Origin: Candidatus Woesearchaeota archaeon
Lineage (GTDB): Archaea > Nanobdellota > Nanobdellia > Pacearchaeales > GW2011-AR1
Reading direction: 5' to 3'
DNA length: 42,788 bases
Assembly: GCA_964355745.1 (NCBI GenBank)
Contig: CAYHEN010000002.1
Coordinates: 1 to 42,788 of the forward strand
Made by a program: the position numbers and the translations under genes. Shown here one piece after another: positions 23,901-34,587 of the stretch. Position 1 is the stretch's first letter. Each line of letters opens with the position of its first letter. The notes beneath the pieces were generated by a model. That model saw nothing but the letters and a program-made list of their open reading frames with translations, searched no databases and had not been told where the DNA came from.

Positions 23901-26612
23901 ATGGAAGAAAAGAAAGAGGAACTTTCTGCGTCTGCCTCTAAGGAGGACATTCGGAAGAGTGTAAGCGAGGAGAGGATAAGAAAGCTCACTCACTTGTATT
24001 ATTCCAAGCCAGAGATACAAAAAATTATATTTGATTTTTCGCAAAATCGTGAAATCTGTCCGAGATATTTTGAAGGTTTCGGCAGACGTCCTGACTCTTT
24101 GCAGTATGAATCAGATATTTTTGAGTTGGTGAAAAAAGGCGCGACTTCTTTCCATTGTTCAGAAGAACTTTGGTCTCAGCCACTAAGCTTGTCAACAAAC
24201 ATGGATGAAAAACAATTGAATGGACTGAGAACAGGATGGGACTTGATTTTGGATATTGACAGCAAATATATTGATTACAGCAAGATTTATGCAAAGATAA
24301 TAATCGAATTTTTGGAGTTTAGTGGTGTGAGGAATATAGGAGTGAAGTTTAGTGTTTCTGGAGATACTCCCATTTTGATAGAAAAAAAAGGAGAATTTTC
24401 TTTAATTTCTATTTTAGAAGCTGTAGAATATATAAAACAAAAGAAAGAATTAAAAGTTTTATCATTGGATAAATCAGGAAAAGTTAAGCTTTCAAAAATT
24501 TATGATTTTTTAGAACATAAGGATACAATCTATGAAATAATCCACTCACAAAGCACTATGCCTCTAAAAGTAACAGGACACCATTCTGTTTTTGTTTGGG
24601 ATATGGGAGATATAATCCAAAAGAAAGTTGAAGAATTAAAAAAAAGGGATTTTTTAATATCTTATAATTCAATAGAAAATCCCCTTGTAAAAAAAGATTT
24701 GAAAATAATTAACGAATTTGACTTTGGTAAAAATCAAAATTCTAAAAAATTAATAAAAAAAGAGATAATTGTAACAGAAGATTTAATGAGACTTATAGGT
24801 TATTTTTTAGCAGAAGGACATGTAACAAATATTATTAATCAGGTGGGTTTCACTTTCAATAAAAACGAGATTGAATATATAAACGATGTTAAAAGTTTAT
24901 TATTTTCATTAACAGGGAAAAAACTTTCTATAAGAAGTCCAAATTCAAACTCCGTTCAAATTCTAATTCACTCAAAAGAATGGGCTTCTTTTTTTGATAA
25001 TTTTTGCGGAAAGAAAAAGGATAAGCATATACCTGCCTTTGCTTTCAAAGCTTCAAGGGAACTTTTTTTAGAGTTGTTAAAAGGATACATTCGTGGAGAT
25101 GGATATAAAAAAGGAGAGTATGGGGTTGTTGTTAAATCTGTTTCAAAAAGATTGATTACAGAAATGATTTGGCTATGCAAATTAAATAATATTTCTTGTA
25201 ATTTGTCTTCGGAACAAAATAAACCCCATAAACTGCCTCAAGGAAATTTTTTCAAGGGAAGTTTAGTTTATTTGTTAAGAATACCCAAATCTGAATTAGT
25301 TAATTTAGAATTTCATAGAGAAAGAAATAAATTTTCTCCTTATGCTGGAGATAGAATTTTCCCTACAGACGGCTTAAAGGAAGTTTACAATCAGATAAAG
25401 CCTAAAATGTTTAATTCTCACCGAGCAGAACAGATGACTCTTAAAAAAGATGGAGCAAATCTTAATAGAATAAAAAAAGTTTTGGATTGGTTTGAAAAGT
25501 TTAAAGAGATAAATCCCGATAAAAACTCCCAGAAGATTCTGGATAATTATAAGAAATTATTTAATTCAGATATTTCTATCATCAAAATTAAAGATATTTC
25601 AAGAAAAGAAGAGGAATTAGTTTACGATATCTCTGTGGAAGAAACAGAATCTTTCTTTGGAAATTATTACCCTGTGCTTTTGCATAATTCCGGATCAAAA
25701 GGATTTCATATGATAATTCCATGTAAAGCTTTTCCAAAAGAAGTGAATCATGTTGAAACAAAAAACATGTTTCCAGAATGGGCAAGAATCCTTACAAAAT
25801 ATATTATAGAAAAAACCAAACCTAAATTAATAGAAGAGATTACAGAACTCTTTTCTCCAAACAAATACATAAGAGACAATACAGCACCAAAAGAGGTCAT
25901 GCCAGATTTAATTCTTGTTTCTCCACGCCATTTGTTCAGAATACCTTATTCTCTCCATGAAAAAACTGCATTAGCCAGCGTTGTTATCAACAAGAATAAA
26001 ATTTCTGATTTTCAATTGCGAGACGCTAATCCATTAAAAGCAGAGATAAAAGATTTTACTCCTGAATGCAAATCCGGAGAAGCAACAAGGCTTTTGATGC
26101 AGGCACTTGATTGGAGCAAAGAGACAAATCAGGGAGATAGTGAAAAGAGAAGCATAGAATACAAACCAATTCAAATAACAGACAAGTCTGAAAAGAATTA
26201 TCCTCCCTGCATTAAAAAAATTTTAAATGGCATGGCTGATGGAAAGAAAAGGGCTTTATTTGCTTTGCTGAATTTCTTCTGTTCAATTGCAATGGAAAAA
26301 GACGAGCTGGAAAAGATTTTGTATTCTTGGAATGAAAAGAATAATCCAAAACTTCACGAAGGATACATCAAATCTCAAATAGCATATGCAATAAAAAGAA
26401 AACCTGTTCTGCCTCCAAACTGCATGGAATTTTATCAGGGAATTTCTGTTTGCTATCCTGACGAACTCTGCAAGTTGATAAAAAATCCTGTTAATTATGT
26501 TGTGAAAAAAAATTTTCAGTCTAACAAATACAAAAGCGATTATGCATATGCATCACGAAGAACTGAAATAAAAAAACTAAAAACTAAGGATAATTTTAAA
26601 AACAACAATTGA
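23901..26612 (+). CDS. fused PriS-PriL DNA primase containing an intein
   Basis: WDLILDID (motif I), F|SGSKGFH (motif II), RIPYSLH (motif III); C-terminal PPC...PPNC...C...C Fe-S-type PriL domain. Confidence 0.92.
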   Translation: MEEKKEELSASASKEDIRKSVSEERIRKLTHLYYSKPEIQKIIFDFSQNREICPRYFEGFGRRPDSLQYESDIFELVKKGATSFHCSEELWSQPLSLSTNMDEKQLNGLRTGWDLILDIDSKYIDYSKIYAKIIIEFLEFSGVRNIGVKFSVSGDTPILIEKKGEFSLISILEAVEYIKQKKELKVLSLDKSGKVKLSKIYDFLEHKDTIYEIIHSQSTMPLKVTGHHSVFVWDMGDIIQKKVEELKKRDFLISYNSIENPLVKKDLKIINEFDFGKNQNSKKLIKKEIIVTEDLMRLIGYFLAEGHVTNIINQVGFTFNKNEIEYINDVKSLLFSLTGKKLSIRSPNSNSVQILIHSKEWASFFDNFCGKKKDKHIPAFAFKASRELFLELLKGYIRGDGYKKGEYGVVVKSVSKRLITEMIWLCKLNNISCNLSSEQNKPHKLPQGNFFKGSLVYLLRIPKSELVNLEFHRERNKFSPYAGDRIFPTDGLKEVYNQIKPKMFNSHRAEQMTLKKDGANLNRIKKVLDWFEKFKEINPDKNSQKILDNYKKLFNSDISIIKIKDISRKEEELVYDISVEETESFFGNYYPVLLHNSGSKGFHMIIPCKAFPKEVNHVETKNMFPEWARILTKYIIEKTKPKLIEEITELFSPNKYIRDNTAPKEVMPDLILVSPRHLFRIPYSLHEKTALASVVINKNKISDFQLRDANPLKAEIKDFTPECKSGEATRLLMQALDWSKETNQGDSEKRSIEYKPIQITDKSEKNYPPCIKKILNGMADGKKRALFALLNFFCSIAMEKDELEKILYSWNEKNNPKLHEGYIKSQIAYAIKRKPVLPPNCMEFYQGISVCYPDELCKLIKNPVNYVVKKNFQSNKYKSDYAYASRRTEIKKLKTKDNFKNNN
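24351..25688 (+). mobile_element. intein (446 aa) with LAGLIDADG homing endonuclease
   Basis: block A SVSGDTPILI, block B VTGHHSVF, LIGYFLAEG and LLKGYIRGDG, block F VYDISVE, terminal HN then Ser+1. Confidence 0.95.
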
Positions 26613-30424: not shown

Positions 30425-31130
30425 TTTCTTTCTTTCTCCTTAATGTTTTTAGCAAAAATAAAGCTCCAAAACCAATGCAGAAGCTCACAATTCCTGCAAG
30501 AGCCAAATTTCTTTTCAAAATTTCTTTGTTATCTTCGCTTTTTATATTTAACGCTATTGGAGCAAGAGTTATTGTTTTTGTTGTGCTTTTTGGAGAGGAT
30601 GTTGTGCTTCCAGAACTGCTTTTTGGTGGATTATTCGATGTTTCTTGCATTGTTGAATTGTCGTCTGTTTGTTCAGTAGTTTCATTGGTTGTTGGTTGTG
30701 TTTCTTCTTGGGTTTCTTCTAAACAATTATTCTCACTTCCTTTTGTAGAACTCATAAATTTCCAAGAGAAAGAACAAAACTGATGTGTAAGGTCGTCATT
30801 TTTAGAATCATCAAATAAATCGGTTTTATCAATAAGCTCTAAACCATTGTATAAAGAAATACTTTCATTGAAATTATCTAACCATTGTTTTGTAAAAGTA
30901 TAAACAAAGTATCCATTAAAAGTGTCATTTAAACTGATGTTTTTTCTATCCCCATTAATAATTATATATCCTTCAAGTGAAATTTCCCCATCATTATATA
31001 ATTCAATCCATTCATTTCCTGCATCTGTTCCGGCAGGATTCATCTCAATCTCATTTATTCTTAATGCTGAAACAGAAAGACACTGGAGAAATATCAAAAA
31101 GACAAAGATAAAAACCAACGCTCTCTTCAT
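30411..31130 (-). CDS. lamin tail domain surface protein
   Basis: signal peptide, INEIEMNP...EWIELYN, Thr/Ser linker, C-terminal TM. Confidence 0.85.
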   Translation of the reverse strand: MKRALVFIFVFLIFLQCLSVSALRINEIEMNPAGTDAGNEWIELYNDGEISLEGYIIINGDRKNISLNDTFNGYFVYTFTKQWLDNFNESISLYNGLELIDKTDLFDDSKNDDLTHQFCSFSWKFMSSTKGSENNCLEETQEETQPTTNETTEQTDDNSTMQETSNNPPKSSSGSTTSSPKSTTKTITLAPIALNIKSEDNKEILKRNLALAGIVSFCIGFGALFLLKTLRRKKENEFR

Positions 31131-31154
31131 GAAGAGAAAAGAAAGAGGGGATTT

Positions 31155-31451
31155 TTATTTTTTATTATACTTCACTTTAAAATCAATATATTCTATCTTG
31201 CCTTTTTCTTTTGATTTTCGTGCAACGAGTATTCTTGAAAATATCTTGTTCTCTAAAAGCCATATGCACTTTTCCTTCTCTTCTCTATCAAGCCAACCAT
31301 TTGCCTTGACTTCAACTCCAATGACTTCATATCCATTATCTTGTTTTCTGAACGTTATAAAATCTGGAAATCCGCCAGTATTCATCATTAAAGATTTTGT
31401 GAATGGATTAAACTTTGGTTTACATTGGACCAATTTGCCTCTTTTTGTCAT
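31155..31451 (-). CDS. C-terminal part of a split Hjc-like PD-(D/E)xK nuclease
   Basis: GFPDF and GVEVK catalytic motifs; GAGGT SD; ATGA overlap with the inserted ORF. Confidence 0.75.
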   Translation of the reverse strand: MTKRGKLVQCKPKFNPFTKSLMMNTGGFPDFITFRKQDNGYEVIGVEVKANGWLDREEKEKCIWLLENKIFSRILVARKSKEKGKIEYIDFKVKYNKK

Positions 31452-31600
31452 AAGCATACCTCGCTAATTTGTTTCTCAATTATATTAGGGTTATTTTGGA
31501 TATCCCTTTCCCAGAACCTCAAAACAATAAGTTTTAGCCTTATCCAATCTTTTTTCTTCTTCCCTTTATTTATTGGTATAAAACCTCTTTTAAAAGGCAT
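31448..31600 (-). mobile_element. 50-aa internally deleted homing-endonuclease-like ORF, not in the ORF track
   Basis: MPFKRGFIPINKGKKKKDWIRLKLIVLRFWERDIQNNPNIIEKQISEVCL: NUMOD3-like start joined to a Vsr/DUF559-like VLRFWExDI end; own GGAGG SD. Confidence 0.75.
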
Positions 31601-31601
31601 G

Positions 31602-31859
31602 TTATCCAACCCCCTCCTCAAAAACTACAGTACTGGTATTTTTAATAACAATCCATCCGTTTTTCTCAAGATCACTTCTTACTTTTCTCTCGAATCTTCC
31701 TCCAATAGCACGGCTTTTCTTTCCTCTTTTGACCTCAGATTTTTTCTTAGATTTTGGAATTCCTTTGTCATCCCAGGAAGTTTCATAATTACTTGGGTCT
31801 CCCGCTTCTCTAATTCTCTTCATAATCTCCTCTTCATGCTCTTTTTTGACTGTTTCCAT
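31602..31859 (-). CDS. N-terminal part of a split Hjc-like nuclease
   Basis: GGRFERKVRSDLEKNGWIV resembles the first helix/strand of Hjc. Confidence 0.72.
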   Translation of the reverse strand: METVKKEHEEEIMKRIREAGDPSNYETSWDDKGIPKSKKKSEVKRGKKSRAIGGRFERKVRSDLEKNGWIVIKNTSTVVFEEGVG

Positions 31860-31900
31860 AAAATTATTTAGAAAAAGAACTTTATATTTTTATTTGAGAA

Positions 31901-32341
31901 TTAATTTATTTTTTCTTCTATCCAGGTTTGTAATATTATGAATGTTATTGCCAAAATACTTATTATGCCTTTTATTGCAAGAAAAGAAGGGTTTTGAATG
32001 TTTATCTGAGGAAGGCTTAAAATTCCGGCAATTACTGCAACAGCCCCGACTATTAACATCGTAAGTTCCCCTAAGAGTTCAGGAGTTAGACCATCGATTT
32101 TAATATTTTTTAATTTCTTTAATGATGTTTCTAAAGTCAGTCCTATTCCCAATGTAATAAGCCATAAAGTTTCAATGTAATTATTTATTTTAACATAAAA
32201 TAAAGTTTCAAGAACAATACTCAAAAAACCGATTATACTAACAACCGAAAGCGCAATTACAAAACTTCTTGAAGCTTTATTTTTCTTAATCTCTTTATCA
32301 ATTTCTTTCTTATTTTTTTCACTCTCTTTTTTCTTTATCAC
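31901..32341 (-). CDS. hypothetical 4-TM membrane protein
   Basis: hydrophobic segments; GTG start. Confidence 0.65.
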   Translation of the reverse strand: MIKKKESEKNKKEIDKEIKKNKASRSFVIALSVVSIIGFLSIVLETLFYVKINNYIETLWLITLGIGLTLETSLKKLKNIKIDGLTPELLGELTMLIVGAVAVIAGILSLPQINIQNPSFLAIKGIISILAITFIILQTWIEEKIN

Positions 32342-32571: not shown

Positions 32572-34146
32572 TTATTTAACCTCTAAAAGTTTTTCAACTG
32601 TTTTATTCCCAAGAGCAAGCAAAAACATAGGCAAACGGGGGCCTGTGTCAGCATCTACCAGCATCTGATAAACATTTTTGAAAAAGCGTCTTTGTGCGAG
32701 TTTCTTTTCTTCTTCTTTCATCCCTGGTTTTTTTGGAATTTCATAAACAAAGGCAGTGAGTTTTTCTGTATCCATTTTCTTTTTCATTTGTTCTCCTAAT
32801 TTTATTATCTGCTCTTTTCCCTCTTGGTTCAGTTTTTTAAAATAATTAACATTTGGGGTTTTTCTTACTTTTATTTTCATTCCAGGGTTGAATCTTTCAA
32901 TCCACGCCTGTGATTTTTCCAGCCGAAGTTTCAGCATTTTTTCGTCATACTTCTGTTCAATTCTGTCATACATTTTTTTTAATTCAGAAAAATCTCCCTG
33001 AACAATCTGCCCAAAAGAAGCAATCTGTCTGAAGGAAATTCTTACTTTTGCTAAAGGCTTTTTTGTCTTTGAAAATTCTATTTCTCTCTTCTCTTCATTT
33101 GTAAGTCTTTCATTATAATAGTCTATTATTTTTTGATCAAATTCTTCATACTGCCTTATTATCTGCGAGTCAAAAAACAGCGTTATTGGCTTTAAGGGTT
33201 TGACTCTAGTGAAAATCCATCTCAATAATTCTGGTTCGTAAATTTCCAGCAAGTCTTTCGGAGAAATGCCTGTTCCCTTTGAACTCGACATCTTGAATGC
33301 TCCTTCAACTCCAACAAATCCATACCCTTGAAATAACGGAGGATTTATTCCGTAAATTTCTTTTGCAATCATTTTTGAAACATCATAACTTCCTCCTGGA
33401 GATGCATGGTCTTCTCCTCCTGGTTCAAAGCTAACATCCTCATATTTCCATCTCATTGCCCAATCAACTTTCCAGTCCAGTTTTCCAATATTCTTTTTTG
33501 ATATATCTACTTTTTCTCTTTGTCCACACTTGCAGTAATAAGTAACTTCATCGCCTTCATACTTTATTATTTTTGTATTAAGGTTGCTTTTACATTTTGT
33601 GCAGTAAATTTGCAATGGATAATAGTTTTCAATTCCCTCCTTACTCATGCCCTGTGTTTTGAATTTCGCGAGAATTTTTGCTATTTCCTTCCTCTTTTGC
33701 ATCGCGATTTTTATTCCTTCGTAATATTTGTTTTTCCTGTACATTTCTGTCTGATGAATAAATCTGATATCAATTCCCAATTCAGGCAAAACTTCTTCAA
33801 AATCTGCTTCAAAATGTTTTGCATAGGAATTATGGCATTTATAGGGGTCAGGAATCTCTGCCAGAGGCATTCCTAAATATACAGAAAAACTTTGGGGGAT
33901 ATTCGCAGGAATTTTTCTCAGTCTGTCAAACTCGTCCCAGGAGAAAATCAATTCTGCTTTGTACCCTTTGTCTTTAAGCGCTCTTCCAACCAAATCAATA
34001 GTAATAACATCTCTGAAATTCCCAATATGAACTGTTCCGGAGGGCGAAATCCCTGCAGCACATACAAATTTTTTCTTTTTTGGATTTAACGCGATTAATT
34101 TTTCAGCAATAGCATCTGCCCAATGCTTCTCATTTTCTTCAATCAT
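32572..34146 (-). CDS. lysS: lysine--tRNA ligase, class I
   Basis: GISPSGTVHIGN, WKVDWAMRW, KMSSSKG, GPRL. Confidence 0.97.
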   Translation of the reverse strand: MIEENEKHWADAIAEKLIALNPKKKKFVCAAGISPSGTVHIGNFRDVITIDLVGRALKDKGYKAELIFSWDEFDRLRKIPANIPQSFSVYLGMPLAEIPDPYKCHNSYAKHFEADFEEVLPELGIDIRFIHQTEMYRKNKYYEGIKIAMQKRKEIAKILAKFKTQGMSKEGIENYYPLQIYCTKCKSNLNTKIIKYEGDEVTYYCKCGQREKVDISKKNIGKLDWKVDWAMRWKYEDVSFEPGGEDHASPGGSYDVSKMIAKEIYGINPPLFQGYGFVGVEGAFKMSSSKGTGISPKDLLEIYEPELLRWIFTRVKPLKPITLFFDSQIIRQYEEFDQKIIDYYNERLTNEEKREIEFSKTKKPLAKVRISFRQIASFGQIVQGDFSELKKMYDRIEQKYDEKMLKLRLEKSQAWIERFNPGMKIKVRKTPNVNYFKKLNQEGKEQIIKLGEQMKKKMDTEKLTAFVYEIPKKPGMKEEEKKLAQRRFFKNVYQMLVDADTGPRLPMFLLALGNKTVEKLLEVK

Positions 34147-34185: not shown

Positions 34186-34587
34186 TTATTTCCTATCCAA
34201 TTCCTCATTTAAGATTTCATCAACAATTCTCTGAAATCTGTCCCATCTTGAAATATGTTTATATTTTATTGACTTAAAATTCTCCTGCAGTTTTTGTACC
34301 TTGAGAAATAATTTCAATAATTCTTGTTTTCTAACTCTGTACTTCCCTAAAAGCTGATTGACAACTAATTCAGAATCAAGAAAACAAGTGATTTCTCCTT
34401 TTGTATACCTTGTTGCCAGCTCAAGCGCCTTAATCAGAGCTTCGTATTCTGCAATGTTGTTTGTAACGAGCTTTCCAATTTTAGCGCTGTATTTTGTGAG
34501 AATTTTTTCATTGTCTCTGACAATAACTCCAATTGCTCCTAATCCGGGATTTCCACGGCTTCCTCCATCTGAGTTGGTGTGTATCAC
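34186..34587 (-). CDS. rnhA: ribonuclease HI
   Basis: DGGSRGNPG, TNNIAEY, DSELVV. Confidence 0.93.
   Translation of the reverse strand: MIHTNSDGGSRGNPGLGAIGVIVRDNEKILTKYSAKIGKLVTNNIAEYEALIKALELATRYTKGEITCFLDSELVVNQLLGKYRVRKQELLKLFLKVQKLQENFKSIKYKHISRWDRFQRIVDEILNEELDRK

Follow-up and report, generated by a model that had tools for sequence, protein, structure and literature searches.

How a gene that is a single open reading frame (ORF) in most of its relatives came to be divided by a miniature ORF, and whether its two parts still yield a working enzyme, are the questions raised by the minus strand at positions 31,155 to 31,859 of a 42,788-nucleotide stretch of archaeal DNA (hereafter the window; contig CAYHEN010000002.1 of assembly GCA_964355745.1, Candidatus Woesearchaeota archaeon). 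The host locus encodes a PD-(D/E)xK nuclease of Hjc-like fold, and its N-terminal part (N-half) and C-terminal part (C-half) are separated by an insert bearing a 50-codon ORF (mini-ORF), to judge from its sequence a relic of a homing endonuclease gene (HEG). The most likely reading, to which a probability of about 0.6 is given on comparative grounds, is a two-chain enzyme whose C-half would start at an ATGA overlap with the relic. An earlier note, made from the letters of the window, had offered a split two-chain enzyme, an unrecognised intron in the mRNA or ribosomal bypassing of the insert. The genome analysed comprises 792 kb in 57 contigs and is estimated to be 85.5% complete.

Gene structure and fold of the host nuclease

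The N-half and the C-half lie in the same frame (31859-31457 = 402 nt), with several stops of that frame between them. Excision of 168 nt (31604..31437), as had been suggested in the earlier note, joins ...FEEGVG to KLVQCK, and this plausible product agrees with uninterrupted relatives, e.g. ...EFKEGKGRLIPCKPKF and ...DFEEKKLVKCKPKF; the excision is not unique, however, being one among several in-frame junctions that fit equally well. On re-reading of the sequence the coordinates, the translations, the GGA-TAA end of the N-half, the words like a Shine-Dalgarno (SD) sequence and the ATGA overlap, in which the second C-half ATG (31451) overlaps the mini-ORF TGA, were all correct as first given (Table 1).

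In relatives the gene is one ORF. A search of the archaeal family of the window genome with the C-half returned N and C matches that were contiguous and in one frame, within a single ORF of ~135-190 codons, in 29/29 fetched loci; the single-ORF state was likewise found in 74/80 loci taken from one genome per species and in 70/80 metagenome loci. These counts run against the possibility, raised at the outset, that the homologues are natively two genes. Within the genus, six genomes carry the uninterrupted gene, one carries the gene split by a full-length HEG and one is without a match (86% complete), in addition to the window genome. C-half matches were obtained in 97/201 genomes of the same taxonomic family, and the records of related loci carry the labels Nanoarchaeota, Pacearchaeota or Woesearchaeota archaeon.

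The structure of P0004, the closest uninterrupted relative, was modelled by AlphaFold2 (AF2) with an 82-row alignment, and the mean predicted local distance difference test (pLDDT) score was 89.1. Archaeal Hjc resolvases were the top matches of this model in the PDB by Foldseek (E 3e-3, probability 1.00, template modelling score 0.40-0.54), and VIA-align gave Hjc a Z of 8.2-8.7 with a root-mean-square deviation of 2.4-2.7 A over 85-86 residues. Hjc is not picked out by the fold alone, because other PD-(D/E)xK folds come within ~1 Z unit of it, namely those of tRNA-splicing endonuclease, RPA0323 and VRR-NUC (VRR_NUC 4qbn, Z 7.6). Residues E25, D83, E100 and K102, which form the pattern E...D...E-x-K, are invariant across the 82 sequences.

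By sequence the family stands apart. The Pfam Hjc model (PF01870) matched neither half nor two uninterrupted relatives, and a whole-genome scan with it found nothing at the nuclease locus and nothing over the cut-off anywhere in the own genome. Comparison by hhalign of the 82-row family alignment with a single canonical Hjc, taken from this archaeal family, gave a probability of 1.6%. The Pfam VRR_NUC model (PF08774) scored below its curated cut-off of 23.8 bits for the C-half (22.2 bits) and for an uninterrupted relative (21.8 bits), one database protein (P0063) carries a precomputed PF08774 label, and a sequence search of the PDB with the family profile gave no meaningful match. The one weak PF01870 match in the own genome was rejected as Hjc, as it fell in a HicB/HicA-like pair of small ORFs at G000:C45 (L238:1211-1698).

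Canonical Hjc (PF01870 over cut-off) occurs in 96 of the same 201 genomes and the nuclease family in 97; when the two lists were compared by hand, both families were found only in one genome (G053) and neither in 9, in a sample where related genomes are not independent and absence from an incomplete genome is no proof. This pattern suggests that the nuclease family, which is unannotated, may take the place of Hjc in roughly half of the archaeal family. It is also the sole, indirect hint that the enzyme might, as a dimer, cleave four-way DNA junctions. The description 'Hjc-like' in the earlier note is therefore kept for the fold (Foldseek, VIA-align) and the phyletic pattern and dropped for Pfam Hjc membership, in view of the missing PF01870 match and the hhalign value.

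The insert and the endonucleases found at its site

A HEG profile was built from 8 full-length alleles of the DUF559 type (two rows identical; L163 left out) and was run against 11,847 six-frame ORFs (>=30 aa) of the own genome, where the mini-ORF came top (E 2.7e-7). Profile positions 1-23 align to its residues 1-23, with Met1 shared, and positions 203-226 to its residues 25-48 (head 19.9 bits, tail 12.0 bits), while ~179 profile positions (24-202), with the Cys-rich segment, the NUMOD3 repeats and the E-C-D-G-D...H core, are missing. Head and tail alone match the profile, which indicates that the mini-ORF is an in-frame internal-deletion derivative. By this alignment it is a relic of a NUMOD3 + DUF559/Vsr-like HEG of 222-238 aa, without the endonuclease domain; the endonuclease remnant with head and tail and with the catalytic middle gone, which had first been recognised from the letters alone, is borne out by the profile match.

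Other searches with the mini-ORF gave less. Pfam and NCBIfam had no match in it, and among 1.84 billion representative proteins only itself and one repeat protein, sharing LLRRWERDP by chance, were found. A six-frame search of 401 family genomes returned only weak matches, two of which led to full-length alleles. Those two are the N-termini of ORFs of 231-238 residues that start with MPF(R/K)K..IP.NKGKKK and end with ...(V/I)(I/L)RFWE.EI....C..KILE, and in them DUF559 scores 43.8 and 38.9 bits against a cut-off of 20.6, while NUMOD3 and Vsr match weakly. The insert is single copy in its own genome, and no terminal inverted repeats of it were found. A repeat of the type of miniature inverted-repeat transposable elements was rejected on the single copy; the sole match of 42 nt (C3:34089-34132) lies within a 432-codon ORF and reads as chance.

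Alleles with a full endonuclease, which had been predicted, are present at the same site in other genomes. A full-length DUF559-type HEG occupies the same position of the nuclease gene in G325, G288, G376 (same genus as the window), L088, L113, L159, L163, L200 and L209 (the L113 and L209 alleles are identical), and L158 is the tail of a DUF559 type at a contig end. At the same site an HNH + NUMOD3 HEG was found in L079 and L161 (HNH 24.8 bits, cut-off 21.4; NUMOD3 21.0 bits, cut-off 20.4), and a third HEG type, with NUMOD3-like repeats and sub-threshold PD-(D/E)xK matches, in L097, L179, L203 and L207. These are free-standing HEGs that occur sporadically at one site of a conserved gene, outside an intron or an intein, and with three HEG types at one site the split is recurrent and the site a hot spot.

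The split state was counted in 6/80 genome loci and in 7-10/80 metagenome loci; no second relic-type allele was found among the 160 fetched loci. Protein collections also hold the broken form: among 43 proteins fetched from the 120 best database relatives of the C-half, 29 (that of the window included) comprise 93-105 residues and begin with M-x-x-G-(K/R)-(L/I/M) exactly at the C-half start, and there are two N-half-only proteins as well. In the P0004 AF2 model the break maps to residues 49-57, a low-confidence loop that joins the second strand to the third and differs in length by >30 residues among uninterrupted relatives (L228, L217). In these two uninterrupted metagenome alleles 96-102 extra nt lie in frame at the insertion site, and they are loop expansions, not relics. 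A second, decayed copy of the split nuclease gene was observed in L075 (G074:C11:51100-54384), at ~1107-2175, with an N-half match, a HEG fragment (residues 29-113) and a C-half fragment with 3 TAA; the genome of L075 retains an intact nuclease copy on another contig.

A chimeric join in the assembly could in principle mimic such an insert, and the assembly is fragmented (57 contigs). Unitig-level contigs of two public runs nevertheless span both junctions with 0 mismatches (X1 record 1, 30900-31583; X2 records 9 and 11, 31219-31543 and 31519-31852), and none of them joins across the insert; this coverage is not independent support, because the runs may be the source of the window itself. The exact N-half, relic and C-half proteins are also present in protein collections, on 2-3 contigs, and the same architecture recurs in many other assemblies. 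An artefact is thus most improbable.

A quick tree was computed for the C-half region (89 rows, 97 columns; branch support by the Shimodaira-Hasegawa-like approximate likelihood ratio test (SH-aLRT) only) from a set in which 26/74 uninterrupted genome loci and 7 C-half-only proteins were taken and L052 was left out. The window C-half falls in a 24-row clade (SH-aLRT 97) that holds most of the DUF559- and HNH-type split alleles and a few uninterrupted alleles of the C-K-P-K-F type. It groups there with split alleles of other genera, whereas its six uninterrupted genus mates are placed in another clade (96) and the genus mate with the full endonuclease in a third (95). Between L097 and L179 the synonymous divergence (dS) is 0.61 for the HEG and 1.26 and 1.56 for its flanks, and the window N-half is 73% identical to P0124 overall and 55% in the core adjoining the break. 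The tree, dS and identity patterns fit homing with co-conversion of the flanks, for which so short an alignment is no proof.

Taken together, the comparisons show the following course of events. A free-standing HEG of the NUMOD3 + DUF559/Vsr-like type inserted where the gene encodes the variable surface loop that links strands two and three. The insertion split the gene into an N-half with the helix of the catalytic Glu and two strands and a C-half with the Asp and the Glu-x-Lys. A later in-frame internal deletion shrank the HEG to the 50-codon head-plus-tail relic of this genome, which lacks the catalytic core. An intein was rejected, as several stops of the host frame lie across the insert and the halves carry only ~3-8 extra residues per break.

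Table 1. Features of the split nuclease locus, in window coordinates (SD, Shine-Dalgarno)
Feature	Position	Strand	Description
N-half ORF	31859..31602	minus	85 aa + TAA; C-terminus ...VVFEEGVG, last codons GGA-TAA
N-half content	Glu57, 31691-31689		N-terminal extension, helix with G-x-R-F-E-x-K-V-R motif (containing Glu57), first two strands
Mini-ORF	ATG 31600, TGA 31450-31448	minus	50 aa, MPFKRGFIPINKGKKKKDW...VLRFWERDIQNNPNIIEKQISEVCL; starts one base past the N-half TAA
Mini-ORF head	31600-31532		Residues 1-23
Mini-ORF tail	31528-31457		Residues 25-48
C-half ORF	31457..31155	minus	100 aa from ATG 31457; 98 aa from ATG 31451, two codons downstream
C-half motifs	D30, 31364-31362; E47, 31313-31311; K49, 31307-31305		G-F-P-D-F and E-V-K, residues counted from 31451
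Inserted DNA	~31437..31604	minus	~153-168 nt; ends uncertain by a few codons
SD-like GGAGG	31617-31613	minus	Within the final N-half codons, 12 nt ahead of the mini-ORF ATG
SD-like GAGGT	31462-31458	minus	E-V codons of the relic tail, 6 nt ahead of the second C-half ATG

Proposed expression and function of the two halves

In the two-chain reading the three ORFs would be read from one transcript. Given the start signals in the relic (ATGA and GAGGT), the C-half would be made as a separate chain, by re-initiation or from its own SD, and the two chains would assemble non-covalently into a working resolvase-like nuclease, in the way known from phage genes that mobE or mobA has split. The relic would no longer cut DNA; it would persist for carrying the start signals of the C-half and for destroying, by its presence, the HEG target site.

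The start signals were compared among 18 split alleles. An ATG is present at the same position of the C-half in 18/18 and forms ATGA in 16/18, and an SD-like (GAGG-type) word lies 9-12 nt upstream of the C-half in 10/18; in 3 other alleles the N-half codons equivalent to those with the GGAGG of the window likewise contain GAGG-type words. The two-chain reading is held most likely because split alleles keep open halves, catalytic residues and a ratio of nonsynonymous to synonymous divergence (dN/dS) of 0.05-0.21. In the 29 C-half-only proteins G27, F28, P29, D30, E47 and K49 are invariant, and in 16 aligned N-halves of split alleles F56, E57, V60, R61, L64, E65, G68 and W69 are invariant; W74 is kept in 15/16, the exception being the window with N. 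The dN/dS values between split alleles were calculated by the method of Nei and Gojobori (NG86), many saturated pairs not being used, and where dS was unsaturated they were 0.05-0.16 for the N-half, 0.08-0.15 for the HEG and 0.06-0.21 for the C-half; those of the pair L097/L179 were 0.05, 0.08 and 0.09, respectively. For the pair window/L054 the values were 0.16 (N-half) and 0.14 (C-half), at dS ~2.

Assembly of the chains was examined by complex prediction with N-half residues 40-85 and the C-half. The pair scored 0.42 and the best of 3 controls 0.00, the runs agreed in at least 61% of contacts and the partner pLDDT was at least 60. The pass mark used is reached by 58/80 solved complexes and 2/110 mismatched pairs, and passes at <=0.60 comprise only 7/80 solved complexes and both of the passing mismatches. 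The prediction thus gives weak support to an assembly of the two chains, and the pass may come through a likeness of the Hjc-like halves to solved structures.

Several observations weigh against a working two-chain enzyme in this genome. No SD-like word of the kind described stands ahead of the C-half in 8/18 split alleles, and in the window SD-like words precede 7/41 ORFs, compared with 7.9% of random windows; the SD argument is weak because such words are uncommon before genes here. The window N-half departs from 15/15 other split alleles at W74, the W of the motif K-W-x-N, and departs also at the next conserved N, and its core identity to them is 0.53-0.60, as against 0.57-0.76 among the other split alleles; the loss of W74 and the divergence of the core could mean relaxed selection in the window allele, although an uninterrupted allele (L228) carries the same I-K-N as the window. 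One split allele, L097, has E-A-R in place of E-x-K. The dS to the nearest DNA relatives of the window is saturated or nearly so, so that the evidence for purifying selection holds for the split class in general and not for the window allele after the collapse of its HEG. Finally, the complex prediction passed only weakly.

The same facts give weight to a pseudogene, in which the split or the later collapse of the HEG would have killed the nuclease and the ORFs would be open only because these events are recent. The window allele has lost the W found in 15/15 other split alleles, its N-half core is the most diverged of the set, and selection after the deletion is not measurable at saturated dS. 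The decayed copy with a HEG fragment and 3 TAA in G074:C11 (L075) means that such alleles can die. On the other side, the three neighbouring ORFs (85, 50 and 98 codons) are all open at 33.5% G+C, every catalytic residue is kept, the W-to-N exchange is also present in an uninterrupted relative, and the dN/dS values of the split class are low. No canonical Hjc was found in the genome as a substitute, the two families being almost mutually exclusive. A pseudogene is accordingly taken to be rather unlikely, though it is the main competitor of the two-chain enzyme.

Repair at the RNA level, whereby the insert would be cut from the mRNA (by the archaeal splicing endonuclease and a ligase acting on a relaxed bulge-helix-bulge (BHB), or by other splicing) to give a one-chain protein, draws on the common frame of the halves in this genome and on a helix that could bring the junctions together. 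Splicing endonucleases of the DPANN type are, moreover, permissive. The pairing of the junction regions does exist; in the minimum-energy fold a 4x5 internal loop separates stretches of 7 and 8 pairs and one further pair stands alone, which makes 15-16 pairs and not the ~17 first estimated. At -17.9 kcal/mol the duplex is within the range of shuffled sequences (-13.7 +/- 3.0; z -1.39; 10% of 300 shuffles as good), the values for 13 other split alleles are z -0.63 to +1.39, and the whole-region fold has z -0.37. A conserved junction helix was thus rejected, as the pairing is at chance level here and absent from the 13 other split alleles.

A BHB intron was rejected as well. All pairs of cut sites were scanned at both junctions in 4 alleles, and no BHB and no relaxed form (hBH/HBh') that was homologous and restored the frame was found; the top scores lay elsewhere, at chance level. 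The scan agrees with the earlier failure to see a canonical BHB, and the helix has the 4x5 loop instead of 3-nt bulges 4 bp apart. The halves of full-length alleles do not share a frame, and no room is left for a ribozyme because the HEG ORF fills the insert. An Rfam scan of 31050-31950 and of 5 split alleles gave no intron family and only sub-threshold chance matches (psbA 3' untranslated region (UTR) models and SNORD75). The ATG found at the C-half position in all 18 split alleles compared would be needless in a spliced exon. Repair of this kind is regarded as very improbable.

Translational bypassing in the manner of T4 gene 60 takes its appeal from the GGA-TAA that ends the N-half. No GGA landing codon precedes the point at which the C-half resumes, however, where the codons are AGA GGC AAA, and the take-off GGA is not conserved, other alleles ending in AUU-UAG, GCC-UAA or AAA-UAG. 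The bypassed gap in T4 gene 60 is ~50 nt, whereas the gap here would be 153-168 nt, and ~670-690 nt in the full-length alleles. The relic ORF has, besides, its own start and lies in another frame. Bypassing is given next to no chance, the least of the alternatives considered, and splicing and bypassing jointly remain at a few per cent of the weight, unsupported because neither a BHB nor an Rfam intron was found and because neither the junction helix nor the take-off codon is conserved. Among the three explanations first offered, it is the split two-chain enzyme that fits the comparative data, while an mRNA intron and gene-60-like bypassing are left without support.

Some further features were recorded. 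A palindromic hairpin, which is probably terminator-like, lies just downstream of the C-half (31098-31165) and spans the start of the next gene; against plastid psbA 3'UTR models it scored 26.1 bits (gathering score 56.8). An RNase H/RVT_3-like ORF (34189-34587, minus strand) adjoins a class I lysyl-tRNA synthetase gene (32575-34146, minus strand). The protein P0006 of another assembly (121 residues) is identical to the window C-half over ~76 residues and then wholly divergent, and could be a strain variant, a rearrangement or the product of a chimeric contig. A second homing-type element of the window, of the protein-splicing kind, is a 903-codon ORF (23901-26612, plus strand) with the domains of the small and large subunits of DNA primase and with intein splicing and LAGLIDADG domains (Pfam). 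In G000:C17:5930-6691 (minus strand; L253:1931-2662) a free-standing gene with GIY-YIG (44.4 bits) and NUMOD3 (100.9 bits) lies between ORFs without Pfam matches.

Relation to known systems

At one site three stages can be seen side by side, namely a gene without interruption, a gene into which a HEG of one of three types has moved and a gene that retains only a relic of the HEG. Together with the purifying selection on both halves in the split class, these stages open the origin of a split gene to direct tests. The locus presents one concrete route by which split genes of DPANN archaea can arise, carries the mobE/nrdA paradigm over from phages to the chromosomes of cellular archaea and points to an unannotated nuclease family as an apparent substitute for Hjc in roughly half the genomes of a large archaeal family. 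A literature search, with subscription journals and supplements outside its scope, returned no account of this nuclease family, of its split or of an archaeal split gene made by a HEG, and a term search of a fusion/fission survey (PMC11237513) gave 0 matches for 'homing'.

In comparison with archaeal Hjc (PDB 1hh1, 2wcw, 2eo0, 4tkd), the nuclease family shares the PD-(D/E)xK fold, the pattern E...D...E-x-K, a similar size and a complementary phyletic pattern. It differs in that additional strands and a variable hairpin separate motif I from the Asp, in the 45-residue N-terminal extension of many alleles and in the want of a Pfam Hjc match.

Split protein genes, which characterise DPANN archaea including Nanoarchaeota, are treated as signs of genome reduction, with no mobile element named, in the relevant passages of PMC6349945. 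The present case is like those described there in that it concerns archaea with small genomes in which single genes of relatives appear as two ORFs, and unlike them in that the splitting agent is identifiable and the halves are still adjacent. It is possible, though doubtful as a general rule, that HEG cassettes are a general maker of DPANN split genes, each ending the upstream half with a stop and starting the downstream half with an SD and an ATG. Invasion would then convert an important gene of the resolvase type into a two-chain enzyme that still works, and the decayed mini-ORF would be kept under selection as a translational bridge and, through loss of the target site, as a scar against reinvasion.

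Among phages, the review by Edgell et al. (2010, PMC2988022) describes how mobA divides the T4 topoisomerase gene and how gene 43 is divided in the Aeromonas phages 25 and 44RR, the two parts of the 44RR gene being separated by untranslated intercistronic sequence only, with no endonuclease. As in those genes, the split falls at a functionally important region, and the 44RR split likewise outlives its endonuclease; those are phage genes, however, and the relic here is still an ORF with a recognisable head and tail.

The closest parallel is nrdA of phage Aeh1, split by mobE, whose two chains assemble and need the tails made by the insertion, as described by Crona et al. (2010, PMC3045599). In both cases a free-standing HEG inside a conserved enzyme gene has left two ORFs, whose products are made separately and assemble in the phage and are predicted to do so here, and short terminal residues at the break stem from the insertion. 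The overlap of start and stop between host and HEG genes is also shared, being UAAUGA in T4 nrdA/mobE according to the passage of the review that concerns it (PMC2988022) and ATGA in the window. The host here is an archaeal chromosome and the target a small Hjc-like nuclease in place of ribonucleotide reductase; the endonuclease is of the NUMOD3 + DUF559/Vsr-like type, and other genomes have an HNH or a third type at this site, while mobE is of the HNH type; and, unlike its counterpart in Aeh1, it has collapsed to a relic of 50 codons.

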